Shown here: piece by piece, positions 41,691 to 50,397 of the stretch | Layout of the letters: each line of letters opens with the position of its first letter | How positions within the stretch are numbered: position 1 is the stretch's first letter | The notes under the pieces: model-generated | Seen by the model: the letters and a program-made list of their open reading frames with translations, nothing else | Databases searched by the model: none | What the model was told of the DNA's origin: nothing | Translations under genes and position numbers: made by a program | Assembly: GCA_965237955.1 (NCBI GenBank) | Contig: OZ250169.1 | Location: 1,792,001 to 1,856,000, forward strand | DNA length: 64,000 bases | Direction of reading: 5' to 3' | From: Candidatus Marinacidobacterales bacterium | GTDB lineage: Bacteria > Acidobacteriota > Vicinamibacteria > Marinacidobacterales > SMYC01

Positions 41691-42833
<1,143 letters not shown>

Positions 42834-42954
42834 CTAAAAAAACAGGATATGGCCAGGACCCGCTGTTGATACGGGTTTTCGTGCACTTTCCGCTGCCGCT
42901 CCTGCTAACGCGTTCAATACAAAGCATCAAGTTCTCGAGCCACCGACAAAAGGG

Positions 42955-43026
42955 TTGACAGGCCCCTCAGCCCTTCCTTATCCTACATCTAGTATGTCAA
43001 GCCTGGACTCAGACAACTGCTAGTTG
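42955..43026 (+). promoter_or_regulatory. sigma70-like promoter overlapped by tandem NrdR-like boxes
   Basis: TTGACA(42955)-N18-TATCCT(42979). Box 1 ATCCTACATCTAGTAT (42980-42995) and box 2 AGACAACTGCTAGTTG (43011-43026) start 31 bp apart. Confidence 0.6.
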
Positions 43027-43202
43027 TTACTGCTCTTCGAGCGGATGGCGCCCCTTGGTGCTTCTGTCCGAAGAACGGTGGTTTGGGTTTTCCGGCATGC
43101 GAGCGGAAGACCGAGATGTCATTAAGAAATTTTGAACTTTCAAAATGCAGTGACTCCCTCGGGCACCTCTGCTCTATCCCCTAAGGAGAGGAGGCGATAA
43201 GC

Positions 43203-43271
43203 ATGGCAAAAAAGAGAAAGAAAGCTACCAAGAAGAAAGCGGCCAAGAAAAAGGCTGCAAAAAAGAAATAG
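43203..43271 (+). CDS. 22-aa Lys/Ala-rich histone-H1-like micropeptide MAKKRKKATKKKAAKKKAAKKK
   Basis: AAGGAGAGGAGG RBS, ATG...TAG, with its own promoter and terminator. Confidence 0.8.
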   Translation: MAKKRKKATKKKAAKKKAAKKK

Positions 43272-43296
43272 CGACTTCCTCAGGGGTATCGAGAGC

Positions 43297-43325
43297 GGGG
43301 GTGAGAGCTTCACCCCCTTTTTTTT
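43297..43325 (+). terminator. Intrinsic terminator
   Basis: GGGGGTGA-GAGCT-TCACCCCC followed by T8. Confidence 0.9.
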
Positions 43326-43369
43326 CTCAGCTACCAGTCAAAAGCGGCCAGCTTCCAGCTGGCCGCAAA

Positions 43370-44200
43370 TCAATCCTTTAGCACGTAGCGGTGGATTGCG
43401 TCGGCAACTCCGGCGTCGTCGTTGCTTCTTGTTTCGGCGAAGCCTTTGTTTTGCAATTCTTCGACGGCGTTGGCCATCACCACGCCTAGACCTGCCGCCT
43501 CCAGCATGTCTAGGTCGTTCCAGTTGTCGCCCATGGCGAGGGTTTCGCTCATCGGGGCTCCGACATGCGTGCTCAAGAACTTCAAGGCCGATGATTTGTT
43601 GGCGTCGGCCGCTAAAACGTCGAGTAGGGCGAGATCCTCTTTGGGATACTCGGTTTTGATGATGCTCACGCTTGCGCCGGAGAGCGCGCTCGTCAGATGT
43701 TCGGCGAATTCGCGGATCTCGGTTAGTCCGGCGGCGAAGCCGATTTGTACGGGATCACGCTCGAGCACGAGGGACGGAACCCAGTTCGGAGGCGGGATCG
43801 TTTGATTCAAGTACCGTCCGACGTGGGGAAGCAGCTTGGCGTCTTCGCGAAGAATCAAGCGTCCTTCCCCGTTGGGACCGTCGTGCACGACGGGCTCGAT
43901 CCCGGCTTCGGTGGCAATGTCGAGAACCGCTTCCGCGACGTCGCGCGGCAAGAGGCAAACTCTCAGGAGCCGCCCGGCGACGCCGTTTTTGATAATGGCC
44001 CCGCTGTTCGCGACGACGAACGGATCGATCGGAAGCTTGGCGACATAGGGACGAGCTGACGGGAAGCGGCGGCCGGTGACGATCGCCACCGCCACGCCGG
44101 CATCGACGCACGCGCCAAGAGCTTGTCTGTTTTCTTCCGCGATGTCGCGCGTCGAGCTGAGTAGAGTGCCGTCGAGATCGACGGCGACGAGCCGGAACAC
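43370..44200 (-). CDS. Cof-type HAD-IIB hydrolase
   Basis: DLDGTLL, VTGR, K, and GDNWNDLDML motifs. Confidence 0.93.
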   Translation of the reverse strand: MFRLVAVDLDGTLLSSTRDIAEENRQALGACVDAGVAVAIVTGRRFPSARPYVAKLPIDPFVVANSGAIIKNGVAGRLLRVCLLPRDVAEAVLDIATEAGIEPVVHDGPNGEGRLILREDAKLLPHVGRYLNQTIPPPNWVPSLVLERDPVQIGFAAGLTEIREFAEHLTSALSGASVSIIKTEYPKEDLALLDVLAADANKSSALKFLSTHVGAPMSETLAMGDNWNDLDMLEAAGLGVVMANAVEELQNKGFAETRSNDDAGVADAIHRYVLKD

Positions 44201-44202
44201 TT

Positions 44203-46254
44203 CTAGGGCTCACGGTAGGGAGACGTGAAACCGTCCCAGATCGTGACGTCGACGATGGGGTCGCCGGGCTCGAGTCGGTCGACGATCTCCATCCCCGAGG
44301 TCACTTGCCCGAAAACGGTGTTGCGACCGTCGAGATCGGGTCGCGGCAAGTGGGTGATGAAGAACCGGCTTCCGCCCGTGTCCTTCCCGTGGTTCGCCAT
44401 CGCGACCGTGCCTCGCAGGATGGGGCGCCTGTTGATCTCGGAGCGAATCACATAACCAGGCCCGCCGTTGCCGTCACCTCTCGGGTCTCCTGCCTGAATG
44501 TATCCGTTGGGAACGACGTCGTGAACCGAGAGCCCGTTGTAAAAGCCGTCGCGGGCGAGCCGTACGAAGTTCCGCACCGTCATCGGCGCATCGAGCACGA
44601 AGAGCTCGAGCTCTATGACCCCAAGCTCGGTGCGAATGAAGGCCTGCGGTGAATAGCGAGGGCTAACGTAAGGTCGGTAGGTGTCGAGGCTCAATTCGCT
44701 GGGTCGAGCGCGAATCGCCGCGTTGGCGTCGCCGGCCTGCCTGGAGATCGCTGCCGCCTGGCGTCGGACGAGATAGCTCGTGTCATCGATCGCTCTGCGC
44801 GCGCTTTCAAGTCCTGACTCTGGCTCGAGCGCCGCGAACACCGCGAGAAGCCCCGCTTTGACACGCGGCTCGTCCTCGTCCGCGACGAGAAAAGCCTCGT
44901 GGACCGGCGCGGCGGCTTCGGACGCCCCGATGCTCCCGAGCGCCACCGCGGCCGCAAGTTTCTCAAACGGATCGTCCGCGGACAGATGCTGTATGAGCAC
45001 GGTCACCGCACCTTCCGGGTCGCGTCGTGCCAAAGCGGTGAGCCCGTGCGAGCGAACGCGCGCGTCCGGCTCGAGAGAGGCATCGACCATGGTGCGCAAT
45101 AGCTCCACCGCTCTTTCGCCGGTCATGCGCCCGAGTAGATCCGCGAGTGCGGCTCGCACCTCCCAGTCTAGGTCCGCGCCCACGCCCGCGAGCAATAGCC
45201 AGAAGCCCGCCGGGTCTTGTCGCGCCAACGCCGGCAAGACGAGTGCGCGTAGCCAACGGCTTTCGCTCCCCAGCCGATCCAAGAGCGGCTCGATAGCAGC
45301 CGGCGCCGACAGGGTCGTCAGCGCCTTGAGAACCACCGCTTGAACGTAGCGCGTGTCCCTTTCCAGCAACGTCAGAAGAGCCGGCACGACTTCCGGGAGT
45401 CCAATCGATGTCGCCGCACGCACCGCGGCAATGCGAACCCGCTCGTTGGGATCGGACAACATCACCCGGATGGGATCACGTGCGGTCGCGCTCGCCACCG
45501 TGCGAAGCCCGCGAGCGCTCCACAACCGAAACTCTGGATTCCTCTCGCCGGCGTAGTACGCCAGAAGCGGCGCGCGCTGATCGCCTTCGAGCTCGCTCAG
45601 CGCCCACGCGGCGGGCCACCAGACGAAGCGCGGTGTCCCGCCTTCGGTCGCGAGAATGTCCCAGCTCCAACGCAGACTTTCGAGGCGAGCCAAAGCAAGG
45701 ATTGCGAGCCTCAAGTCGTGGTGAGGATGGCGAAGCGCTGACACGTCCATGTCGTCGGCCCACTCGTAAGGCTCGGCTCCGCGCGGGACCGAGCTCGAGA
45801 TCGCCGTCGCGATCGTCTCGGCAGCGGCATCCCTTCCCTTCTTGCCGATCGTCTCGTACGCCCGCGCACGGACGGACGGGTCGTCGTCACGCGTCGCTTC
45901 CGTCAACCGGCGGAGGGCGTCCTCGGGAAGCTCCTCCTCCAACAAGCCGAGCGAGAAAGCTGCTGTCGCGCGTACGTAGGCTGTACCGTCATCGAGCAGA
46001 GGAGCGATCGCCGCCGCGGCGCCGGGCTCACCGATGCGGGCCAGCACCAGGGCGGCCCGCGCCCGGACTCGCCCGGCCTGGTCGCTCAGGTGCGCGTGCA
46101 CCTCGCCGTCCCCGAGGGAGCGTTCGTCCTCGAGCTTGAGCAAGCGAGCGAGCTTGTCTTCGAGTGTGGGCTCGACCGGGTTCGGTGTCGATGCGCAGCC
46201 GACGGTGAATAAGGCCAAAAAAAACGCGCCCGTAAGGCGCTGACGCTGTTTCAT
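44203..46254 (-). CDS. HEAT-repeat lipoprotein with a C-terminal cyclophilin-like domain
   Basis: Lipobox TVGC, HEAT repeats, AP.TV.NF..LA..GFY and GDP.GDG.GGPGY. Confidence 0.88.
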   Translation of the reverse strand: MKQRQRLTGAFFLALFTVGCASTPNPVEPTLEDKLARLLKLEDERSLGDGEVHAHLSDQAGRVRARAALVLARIGEPGAAAAIAPLLDDGTAYVRATAAFSLGLLEEELPEDALRRLTEATRDDDPSVRARAYETIGKKGRDAAAETIATAISSSVPRGAEPYEWADDMDVSALRHPHHDLRLAILALARLESLRWSWDILATEGGTPRFVWWPAAWALSELEGDQRAPLLAYYAGERNPEFRLWSARGLRTVASATARDPIRVMLSDPNERVRIAAVRAATSIGLPEVVPALLTLLERDTRYVQAVVLKALTTLSAPAAIEPLLDRLGSESRWLRALVLPALARQDPAGFWLLLAGVGADLDWEVRAALADLLGRMTGERAVELLRTMVDASLEPDARVRSHGLTALARRDPEGAVTVLIQHLSADDPFEKLAAAVALGSIGASEAAAPVHEAFLVADEDEPRVKAGLLAVFAALEPESGLESARRAIDDTSYLVRRQAAAISRQAGDANAAIRARPSELSLDTYRPYVSPRYSPQAFIRTELGVIELELFVLDAPMTVRNFVRLARDGFYNGLSVHDVVPNGYIQAGDPRGDGNGGPGYVIRSEINRRPILRGTVAMANHGKDTGGSRFFITHLPRPDLDGRNTVFGQVTSGMEIVDRLEPGDPIVDVTIWDGFTSPYREP

Positions 46255-46330
46255 GAGGCGCAATTATAGCCCGGAGCCGAGCAAGTCGACCCGTTCCCCT
46301 GCCCTTGCCTCTGCCCCTGCCCGTCCCCGT

Positions 46331-47417
46331 TGCCTTGGTGCACAACTCGCGATCTCGGTCCACAATTGTCCTTTACTCACGGATTCGAGGTTCCCCATGA
46401 GCATTTTCAAACGCACTCAGCGGAAGTATGTGAAGAAGGCCTATCGCGTGAGGAATTGGCGTGAATATGAGGCGGGTCTACGCAACCGTGGGAGCCTGAC
46501 CGTCTGGATCTCGCTCACCGCCGGCAAGCTTGTGAACTGGGACGCGCCCCGGCCGAGGAGGAGGAAACCGGGCCGTCAACGCAAGTACTCGAACCACGCC
46601 ATCGAGACGGCTGTCACCCTGGGCATGGTGTTTCATCTGTCATCTAGGCAGAGCGAGGGATTGCTGCGATCGTTGTTCGCTCTGATGAAGCTAGACAATG
46701 ATGTGCCCGATCACACCACGATTTCGAGGCGCAAGGCGAAGCTGGGTAAGGTCCCCTTCTACCAAGACAAGCAGAAGACGCCGTTGCACATCTTGATCGA
46801 CAGCAGCGGTCTCGCTGCCCACGCCGGCCAGCTGCGCAGAGCACCAAAGAGCAGGGACTATCGCAAGCTCCATCTGTGTGTCGACGAGCAGAGTGGCGAA
46901 GTCGTCGCCGGCGAGCTGACGAGCAAAAGAGCCCGCGATTCATCGCGGGTTGCATCGCTTGTCGGACAGATCGACAGTCCCATCTCATCGGCCAGAGCTG
47001 ACACCGCATACGACGCCAGCGGCGTCTATGAGGCGATCGAGAATCACAGCGCTCATCGCTCGCCGAGGGTGCTGATACCGCCGCGCAAGGGCGCCCAGCT
47101 CGCATCGGGGCCGGCGAGCAGCCGACAGCGCAATCGCAACATTGCAGCACAAGCTCGGCTCGGCAAACGAAAGTGGCACACAGAATCGGGCTACAGCAAA
47201 CGGAGCAAAGTCGAGACAACGTTCCATCGCTACAAGGCTATCGTGGGCTCAGCGATGCGAGCGAGAGGGTTGGCGGCACAGAGAGTCGAGGCAAGGATCG
47301 GGTGCAAGATTCTCAACACCATGACGGCGCTCGGGATGCCTGATAGCGAGATGATCGGATGATGGGAGTCGGGGCCAAGCGAGCTCTCGGCCTCTATCGG
47401 AGTTGTGCACCAAGGCA
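46331..47417 (+). mobile_element. IS5-family (IS903-type) insertion sequence
   Basis: Perfect 18-bp IRs TGCCTTGGTGCACAACTC (46331-46348 and 47400-47417); no target duplication visible. Confidence 0.9.
46397..47362 (+). CDS. IS5-family transposase
   Basis: NW.EY..GL..RGSLTVW, PDHTTISRR, IDSSG, RKLHL, D.AYD and Y..RS.VET...RYK motifs. Confidence 0.94.
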   Translation: MSIFKRTQRKYVKKAYRVRNWREYEAGLRNRGSLTVWISLTAGKLVNWDAPRPRRRKPGRQRKYSNHAIETAVTLGMVFHLSSRQSEGLLRSLFALMKLDNDVPDHTTISRRKAKLGKVPFYQDKQKTPLHILIDSSGLAAHAGQLRRAPKSRDYRKLHLCVDEQSGEVVAGELTSKRARDSSRVASLVGQIDSPISSARADTAYDASGVYEAIENHSAHRSPRVLIPPRKGAQLASGPASSRQRNRNIAAQARLGKRKWHTESGYSKRSKVETTFHRYKAIVGSAMRARGLAAQRVEARIGCKILNTMTALGMPDSEMIG

Positions 47418-48471: not shown

Positions 48472-50397
48472 GGGCCGCCGACAAAATAACTGTCTAGTTT
48501 TGAGCACACTCTTCCTGTTTCAGATCGTGATCGCGATGTCGTCTGGCATCACGAGAGCCTGGCAAGCTCCCTAGAAACGGAACATTTGTAGATCTTCAGC
48601 AACCAGCGCGTGTTTGACAAACGGTCCTCATTTTAGGGAGGATTACGCCTATCAAGGAGCACTTCTCCTATTATGAGACCTACGAGCTATCAGTCTGAAG
48701 ATCTCGACCGCCTGTTGAGGAAGCACAAAATAGCTACCCTCGATGATTTGAAGGCAGTGTTGGGTACCGATGTGGACTCGACCGTCTTCCGAAAGCTCAA
48801 TGAGTTGGCGTATCGGACAAGCTACTCCCACCGTGGTAGCTACTACACGTTGGACGAGATCGCCCAGTTCGATCGAAAAGGTCTTTGGTCGTTGCGCTCA
48901 GTGTGGTTCTCGAAGTACGGGACGTTGCTTGCGACGGTAAAAGCGTTGGTCGCGGCCTGTGAGGCAGGCTACTACGTCGACGAGCTCGAGGACGTGGTGC
49001 AGGTTGACGTCAAGGCTCCTCTGTTGAAACTGGTCCGAGAGAAAAGATTGGCGCGCGAGCAGGTGTTCGGCCGATATCTGTATCTGGCCACCGATGTGAG
49101 CACGCGCAAGCAACAGCTCTCGGCCCGCCAGGTACATGAGGCGTCACCTTCCACGTTGGGCTGGGTCGGGGGAGTCCGCGTGCTCCCCGTGGAGTTGAAG
49201 GCTGCGATCGTTCTTTTCTACAGCCTGCTCGATGAAAAGCAGCGCCGTCTCTACGCGGGAGTCGAGGCCATGAAGCTCGGTCACGGTGGCGACCAACAGA
49301 TTGCCGAACTGCTCGGGATGGATCCGAGCACGGTAGCCAGAGGTCGTAGGGAATTGCTAATGAGAGATGTTGAGCTCGACGGAGTTCGGCGAAAGGGTGG
49401 CGGACGGCGCGCCGTGCAAAAAAAACGCCAGAAGTCATCGCCAAGATCGAAGAACTCATGAAGCACGACACCGCGGGCGATCCGATGACGGGAGTGAAAT
49501 GGACGCGGCGGACCACCGACAAGATTGCTTGCGAGCTAAGAAGCCTCGGTGTGAACGTCAGCAGCAAAACCGTCGGTCGACTGCTCAAACAGCTCGGCTT
49601 CTCGTTGCGGGTGAACCACAAGAAGCTGTGCGGTGCCACGTCCGAAGATCGCGATACCCAATTCGCGTGTATCGCCGAACTGCGCGAGCGTTTTGCCGCA
49701 GCTGGTCATCCCATCATCAGCGTAGACACGAAGAAACGGGAGCTGGTGGGATTATTCAAAAACGGCGGGCAGGCCTGGAACCGCGAGCCGACTCTCGTCA
49801 AAGACCATGACTTCCGTTCCGAATCGAACGGCATCGCAATCCCCTACGGCGTCTACGATCTGCTCGCGAACCGCGGGACAGTGTTCATTGGTACCTCGTA
49901 CAACACCCCGGACTTCGCCGTGAATGCCATCGAGAAGTGGTGGCGAACGGAAGGACGGCGACGCTATCCTGCAGCCCGTGACCTCGCGATATTGGCAGAC
50001 GCCGGGGGCAGCAATGGCTATCGGTGTCGGGGTTGGAAGCACGGGCTTCAAACGCGGATTTGCAATCGCCACGACATCGCTATCACCATAGCCCACTATC
50101 CGTCCGGTACATCCAAGTGGAATCCAGTGGAGCACCGTCTGTTCAGCGAGATCAGCAAGAACTGGGCGGGCAGGCCTCTCGACAGCTACGAAACCATCCT
50201 CAAATACATCCGCACGACCACCACCTCTTCCGGTTTGCGGGTACGCGCACACCTTATCCGGCGTCGTTATCCGAAGGGCGTCAAAATCACTGACGAGCGG
50301 ATGCAGGCGCTTTCCGTTACAAAGGACCAGACTCTACCCAAATGGAACTACACCATCCGACCGTCTTGAAAACGGGAACTTATTTTGTCGCCGGCCC
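48472..50397 (+). mobile_element. ISAzo13-family insertion sequence
   Basis: IRs GGGCCGCCGACAAAATAA / TTATTTTGTCGCCGGCCC (17/18); 3-bp direct repeat TAA at 48469-48471 and 50398-50400. Confidence 0.92.
48673..50369 (+). CDS. ISAzo13-family transposase (two ORFs joined by a -1 frameshift at A8 49418-49425)
   Basis: LDEKQRRLYAG and R..GGGR in ORF1; GDPM, ISVDTKKRELVG, DHDF, DAGGSN and TSKWNPVEHRLFS in ORF2. Confidence 0.92.

Follow-up and report, generated by a model that had tools for sequence, protein, structure and literature searches.

In the 64,000-nucleotide stretch of DNA from a Candidatus Marinacidobacterales bacterium analyzed here (the window), the plus-strand segment 42955–43325 is a complete small unit comprising a promoter, a ribosome-binding site (RBS), a 22-codon open reading frame rich in Lys and Ala, and a terminator. 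This micro-gene unit is a real, conserved, and unannotated gene family, and its operator in the window has all testable features of an NrdR site. NrdR counts as a repressor devoted to ribonucleotide reductase (RNR) genes. A target outside RNR that is preceded by paired boxes looks new, and a paired NrdR operator on a non-RNR gene in over half of a bacterial class would widen the reach of the dATP signal. On balance, and with modest confidence, we favor the reading that a stand-alone gene for a Lys/Ala peptide is repressed through its paired NrdR operator by dATP and that the peptide coats or compacts DNA like the tail of a linker histone. If true, this would add one of the smallest nucleoid-associated peptides, occurring in abundant soil, marine, and sponge bacteria. 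Lys/Ala micropeptides of this kind escape gene callers and tryptic proteomics.

The micro-gene unit and its paired boxes

The layout of the unit (Table 1) agrees with the original prediction, which had described promoter, RBS, reading frame, and strong terminator at this place and had counted the residues of the peptide correctly (13 Lys, 1 Arg, and 6 Ala, to which 1 Thr is to be added). It did not include the structured 212-nt leader, the 3' segment that is complementary to the surroundings of the RBS, or the two other boxed copies in the host genome. TTGACA and TATCCT form the sole sigma-70-like promoter within 42300–44000 (one found, 0.5 expected), and 94.7% of the cells of the terminator stem are paired across 35 homologs. 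Two regions near the unit, at window positions 46253–47362 and 48673–50369, we take from their translations to be transposase-like.

Table 1. Features of the micro-gene unit and of its neighbors (positions within the window).
Feature	Position	Strand	Remarks
Sigma-70 -35 element TTGACA	42955..42960	+	Kept in the class-wide promoter pattern
-10 element TATCCT	42979..42984	+	Spacer 18 bp here, 17 in most relatives
NrdR box 1 (predicted)	42980..42995	+	Overlaps the -10 element and the predicted start site
NrdR box 2 (predicted)	43011..43026	+	31 bp past box 1; weak by matrix; C4, A6, T11, and G13 kept
Predicted 5' leader, 212 nt	42991..43202	+	Strongly folded; about 80 to 230 nt in homologs
5' arm including Shine-Dalgarno GGAGG (43190-43194)	43167..43196	+	Complementary to the post-stop segment
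Lys/Ala micro-ORF, 22 aa	43203..43271	+	
Conserved 3' segment	43272..43298	+	Can pair back onto the RBS arm
Intrinsic terminator	43297..43325	+	9-bp stem 43297-43317, then 8 T
tgt, divergent neighbor	41691..42815	-	TIGR00430 above cut-off
Cof-type HAD hydrolase, convergent neighbor	43370..44200	-	Own terminator 43344-43366

The nrdR gene on which the proposed control depends is present in the genome with Zn ribbon and ATP cone (TIGR00244, 188.7 bits, over the cut-off), and its product keeps D15 and R17, which the accessible part of PMC13584703 gives as DNA-contact residues. The genome carries one class II reductase gene, nrdJ, and has no match to nrdD. A motif matrix was learned de novo from the upstream regions of nrdJ in 30 relatives, using neither the window locus nor the published consensus. 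All 30 nrdJ promoters gave paired 16-mers, 31 or 32 bp apart, with the consensus CCACAACATGTTGTGG, and nrdJ ranks first in the genome by this matrix. Scoring with such a matrix had been suggested together with the original prediction, and by it box 1, which does overlap the -10 element, attains 17.4 bits, which places it 14th among about 8.13 million positions; its positions 4–16 equal the sequence that Table 1 of PMC13584703 lists for E. coli nrdEF box 2. The weaker second box that had been announced 31 bp downstream lies exactly at +31, which is the best offset at the window among those from +14 to +60, and scores -0.6 bits by itself (rank 21,631). C4, A6, T11, and G13 are present in both boxes (all eight positions), the AT fraction between C4 and G13 is 0.69 over both boxes, and the linker measures 15 bp. 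By the strand-specific matrix the pair is 12th of 33 pairs, and its summed score is reached by 16 positions genome-wide and in 8 of 6,401 windows upstream of long ORFs. Given the overlap of box 1 with the -10 element, its conservation may in part be that of promoter sequence.

The accessible portion of PMC13584703 states that both boxes are required, that C4 and G13 play a critical part and A6 and T11 an important one, and that the middle AT is dispensable as long as the stretch between C4 and G13 has an AT content of 63% or more; the spacer rules, with a linker of 15–16 bp between NrdR boxes, derive from the accessible portion of PMC12051234. The NrdR operators of RNR operons (E. coli nrdHIEF, nrdAB, and nrdDG, and S. 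coelicolor nrdRJ) resemble the one in the window in having two 16-bp boxes 31 bp apart, in keeping C4, A6, T11, and G13, and in the position of box 1 over the -10 element. In contrast, the target in the window is a non-RNR micro-gene. In what is accessible of a recent preprint (bioRxiv 10.1101/2025.03.28.645925), paired boxes of E. coli and P. aeruginosa are described only at RNR operons, and the non-RNR candidates dnaA and topA have single boxes; a single box at topA is also given in the accessible text of PMC4409342. The pair at the window promoter is set apart by its target, and it is very probably an operator bound by NrdR, as the nrdR gene with D15 and R17, the likeness to the nrdJ boxes, and the conservation of box 2 at +31 lend comparative support to the NrdR-like control that was originally proposed.

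By DNA search, the host's own family has the unit in 18 of 18 genomes, and a second family has it in 7 of 8. Homologs are kin, and the counts of conservation are therefore non-independent. Scanning 185,579 genomes with only the promoter pattern gave 86 matches; a Lys-rich ORF with a Shine-Dalgarno (SD) sequence follows in all 70 whose record titles read Acidobacteriota, Vicinamibacteria, or Ca. Marinacidobacterales, against 1 of the 16 others. Among 41 non-redundant homologs, box 2 scores best at +31 in 35, with a mean of +0.6 bits at this offset versus -16 to -36 at other offsets, and a score peak at +31 is absent from 14 unrelated matches. In the same 41 homologs C4 (37/41), A6 (37/41), T11 (39/41), and G13 (39/41) of box 2 are conserved while its middle varies; the four positions are kept in 57 of the 70 homologs, 33 of which also pass the 63% AT limit.

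Of 251 genomes of the class (Vicinamibacteria, as judged from record titles), 138 carry paired-box promoters with a spacing of 31 bp, compared with 0 of 251 for a control spacing of 32 bp and none for the reversed pattern. The inspected matches, 50 of the 144 promoter-pair matches, 20 of them picked to span families, lead without exception to a Lys/Ala micro-ORF within 365 nt, and 29 lead to two copies. A test blind to the promoter, with loci chosen by ORF start (at least 30 loci from 33 genomes, 4 of which were dropped for long or non-Lys-rich ORFs), found TTGAC plus both boxes with the four positions at +31 in 21 of 26 Lys-rich micro-gene loci, and 0 of 193 control windows scored 8 bits or more. 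The ORF-start patterns are insensitive (22/401 and 33/251 genomes, missing the host genome), and no prevalence is taken from them. As to the four-position pair pattern alone, it is not enriched genome-wide (115 and 114 occurrences at 31 and 32 bp versus 83–183 at other spacings), and high-scoring pairs exist at 34 and 36 bp as well (five each versus four and seven).

The distribution has gaps. The paired pattern was found in 0 of 28 genomes of family f3, in 0 of 18 of family f103, and in 5 of 31 of family f9, which indicates that the unit is not essential across the class; a Lys-repeat pattern for which there was no positive control also gave 0 of 25 in f3 genomes. Conservation of boxes and peptide next to tgt across the phylum had been put forward as a check, and the outcome is divided: boxes and peptide go together throughout much of the class, as counted above, but the link to tgt does not hold, since tgt and the HAD gene abut without the unit in 6 of 6 cases in f3, and boxing is not phylum-wide, since similar stand-alone micro-genes exist in other classes of the phylum with 4 of 23 boxed. 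When the HAD gene served as the anchor of a search, the micro-ORF appeared at 0 of 21 loci of f3 and other families, so that the neighborhood is not class-wide. In the small genomes of f3, where the HAD gene leads directly into tgt, nrdJ still has its boxes. A unit nearly identical to those of family f2 is seen on a 2.5-kb contig titled Gemmatimonadota (L112), which is probably misbinned.

The encoded peptide and its likely partner

Among ATG-started ORFs of 10–250 aa in the 8.1-Mb genome, 23 of which reached a Lys fraction of 0.30, the 22-aa ORF is the most Lys-rich short one (0.59 Lys). Homologous peptides measure 13–41 aa (median 18), and 59 distinct ones are composed of 60% Lys, 26% Ala, 7% Thr, and 1% Pro. 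An SD sequence sits 7–11 nt ahead of the start in 70 of 70 homologs. Codon positions 1, 2, and 3 differ 48, 20, and 164 times in 44 close pairs, with 127 synonymous versus 59 non-synonymous codon changes, and this bias towards the third position together with in-frame changes in length supports the protein-coding reading of the micro-ORF, which is very probably translated. Amino-acid attenuation by a leader peptide was considered and rejected, as the next gene is convergent and there are consequently no downstream co-oriented biosynthetic genes; in other families, the gene after the micro-gene often is a second copy. Lys-rich ORFs without boxes are present at G000:C1:1902766 and 1976391 (23 aa and 148 aa), and L031 has a relative of the 23-aa ORF in the same context.

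Sequences of Pfam, NCBIfam, and PDB provide no match for the 22-aa peptide. Members of 22, 24, and 41 aa likewise gave no Pfam or NCBIfam match at E values up to 10, a search that has little power with short low-complexity queries, and exact look-up of five family members among 15 billion catalogued proteins returned 0 of 5. Among named Atlas clusters, HC2 comes closest, with a score of 0.90 for 17% of its members, and serves as a lead only. With a charge of +14, the peptide is predicted to be a disordered polycation, and no fold, recognition motif, or hydrophobic segment was found in it. It thereby resembles Chlamydia Hc1/Hc2 (PF07382), the tail of mycobacterial HupB/MDP1, Pseudomonas AlgP, and Streptomyces DdbA, which share variable numbers of Lys/Ala repeats and the predicted disordered, polycationic character. 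It differs from these histone-H1-like proteins in having 13–41 aa in all, no folded domain, and almost no Pro, and histone-H1-like family models (e.g., PF07382) gave no HMM match with these short low-complexity queries. Our search of the open-access literature retrieved no paper that links NrdR to a histone-like peptide or describes this peptide family.

As to function, Lys/Ala tails compact bacterial DNA according to the accessible part of PMC5974015, and by analogy with such tails we consider it rather probable that DNA is the main partner of the peptide; the proposal of compaction is drawn from its composition and from the MDP1 tail. When dATP is plentiful, dATP-loaded NrdR would occupy boxes 1 and 2, lying across the -10 element and the start site, and would block RNA polymerase, as it does at RNR operons. 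Once dNTPs are drained by DNA synthesis or repair, the micro-gene would be expressed along with nrdJ, and the disordered +14 peptide would bind the DNA backbone, so that newly made DNA might be compacted or shielded. Families f1 and f2 have the operator also in front of nrdJ, recA, and a second lexA-like gene, and the host genome has it in front of parAB, so that the peptide would be produced together with functions for DNA precursors, repair, and segregation. MDP1 differs in that its compaction goes with growth arrest or stationary phase, so far as the accessible text on it tells, whereas NrdR control predicts expression of the peptide during DNA synthesis.

A different partner is conceivable for the same regulation. 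NrdR might control the gene while the peptide mainly binds another polyanion, be it polyphosphate or storage granules, as in the case of AlgP, or RNA, and we regard this as unlikely. A polycation of +14 in which neither fold nor recognition motif was found would have no built-in preference for DNA, and in the accessible part of PMC9239181 the KPAA tail of AlgP localizes to polyphosphate granules, so that such tails can serve these instead. However, AlgP possesses a separate domain besides its tail, whereas the peptide consists of a tail only, and the occurrence of the operator also at nrdJ, recA, parAB, and smc speaks for a link with the chromosome cycle.

Transcript and RNA fold

The unit is covered by metatranscriptome contigs of three studies, which attest that it is present but do not give its strand, ends, or level; the comparison comprised 7 of 18 RNA-type runs. 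The contigs extend over 43002–43286, 43002–43253, and 43002–43252 in study P1, over 43019–43292 and 43002–43292 in study P2, and over 43010–43160 in study P4. Three RNA contigs over the unit bear an in-frame insertion of 12 bases, and run X12 holds only short Lys-repeat pieces, which may come from other organisms. Contig ends are not read as transcript ends because contigs of X19, an unlabelled run that is DNA-like, also break at 42938–43033, and missing RNA cover on the flanks of the unit is not counted as evidence.

None of 100 shuffles folds as well as the whole unit (z -3.66). Its conserved 3' segment and the arm around the RBS can form a duplex of -30.0 kcal/mol (z -3.6), which would loop out the ORF; this pairing has p<0.05 in 42 of 71 homologs, and pairing of the SD sequence with the 3' segment amounts to 0.76 in the full transcript. 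These properties, and the depth of RNA contigs in size-fractionated libraries, would suit a situation in which the RNA is the active molecule, or in which the mRNA silences itself in the manner of type I toxin mRNAs, with an ORF whose main use is to load ribosomes or to open a 5'/3' helix. Such a role of the RNA appears very unlikely to us, as the covariation of the RBS/3' helix in 35 sequences is not above that of shuffles (2 double-change pairs versus 2.9 expected) and the full transcript shows no family-wide rise in the energy for opening the RBS (median 7.5 versus 7.8 kcal/mol; a rise of more than 1 in 7 of 35). Furthermore, the type of peptide is kept while leader and trailer wholly differ between families, Rfam holds nothing above chance for the unit (seven related loci yielded only a tRNA), no antisense promoter was found within 42300–44000, and the peptide is not hydrophobic. 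Silencing of translation by the 3' end was accordingly rejected as a family trait, since access to the RBS is not lost family-wide. A type I toxin-antitoxin locus was rejected as well, given that neither an antisense RNA nor a hydrophobic peptide was found and that the results for covariation and accessibility are negative.

There is some likeness to the Chlamydia hctA/IhtA system and to type I toxin mRNAs, consisting in a gene for a polycation (hctA) and in an RBS region that can be paired. Translation of hctA is blocked by an sRNA, according to the accessible account of that system, whereas the pairing in the micro-gene occurs in cis with its 3' end. A 5'/3' helix around the ORF may form and might be stabilizing. 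The middle of the leader has little sequence conservation, and when 22 long leaders were folded to a consensus, only 11 pairs resulted. Leader positions 43101–43109 can pair with the arm 43167–43176 that the 3' segment could also use, which would result in two mutually exclusive helices, and the former helix displays double changes in the alignment of the 22 long leaders.

Further copies and other boxed genes

Three boxed copies of the micro-gene exist in the host genome, and the two outside the window rank 5th and 8th of 30 pairs. Their locations are G000:C1:4114161-4114415 (L063) and G000:C1:6941580-6942030 (L069); one of them encodes a 24-aa peptide with a GTG start and adjoins a gene of the enolase superfamily, and the other encodes an 83-aa Lys/Arg/Ala protein, adjoins a tRNA, and has the same terminal repeats, 3' segment, and terminator.

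NrdR-type pairs with a spacing of 31 or 32 bp and at least 10 bits also precede recA in 14 of 16 genomes of families f1 and f2 (outside these, 0 of 11) and a second lexA-like gene in 14 of 16 f1/f2 genomes (other lexA genes, 0 of 17). The boxes might therefore be bound by another factor, namely a second LexA-like protein, or represent just conserved promoter sequence, and pairs before recA and the second lexA are what autoregulation by LexA would give. We judge this to be highly improbable. In f1/f2, 15 of 17 genomes yielded the second LexA-like protein, which is lineage-specific, against 0 of 12 other genomes, yet pairs are present at nrdJ in families f3, f6, and f7 and, across many other families, at the peptide gene, and a 31–32 bp pair with C4 and G13 is the signature of NrdR. 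The main lexA has no NrdR-type box and carries a GAAC-N7-GAAA repeat instead, which we take to be the acidobacterial LexA repeat. Pairs at nrdJ and at the micro-gene far outside f1/f2, together with the unboxed main lexA, make NrdR the simpler reading, in which case this repressor may have come to control part of the SOS network in f1/f2. That the peptide is a small basic ribosomal protein of the bS22/COX24 type, short, basic, and probably abundant in a genome where 0 matches to PF08213 leave this role unfilled, is extremely improbable in view of its lack of a match to PF08213, any ribosomal family, or any PDB chain, its length of 13–41 aa varying through gain and loss of repeats, its 2–3 copies per genome, the three families in which the unit was not found, and a control by NrdR that would be unexpected for a ribosomal protein.

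Returning to the NrdR-controlled, DNA-binding peptide, sequence comparison suggests that the NrdR regulon of the host genome reaches parAB and perhaps smc. A wider and tentative possibility, which we would not count on, is that Vicinamibacteria possess multi-copy peptides consisting only of a linker-histone tail, expressed from a paired NrdR operator, within an NrdR regulon that has been extended to the chromosome cycle (nrdJ, recA, the second lexA, parAB, and probably smc), as a counterpart of replication-coupled histone supply. The replication-dependent histones of eukaryotes are small, multi-copy, basic proteins whose synthesis follows DNA synthesis. The comparison of their genes with the micro-gene is an analogy only, with no histone fold, no homology, and a bacterial sensor of dATP.

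In the host genome, strong box pairs lie ahead of a DUF151-parA-parB operon (G000:C1:5972108, L066) and near a lytic transglycosylase gene (4689499-4689558, L073), and two boxes 44 bp apart are located upstream of smc (2587360, L065). Tandem pairs of micro-genes are seen in many other families of the class, with the boxed promoter ahead of the first copy (14/26 and 29/50 loci). Three genomes of other classes (L234/L253, L242/L255, and L238/L254) have one boxed and one unboxed copy, an arrangement reminiscent of replication-dependent and replication-independent histone variants, and in G436 the peptides of the boxed and the unboxed copy are identical. Unboxed copies in two families (L245–L250) have a different leader, which is conserved and apparently structured; the two that were compared with Rfam gave no match.
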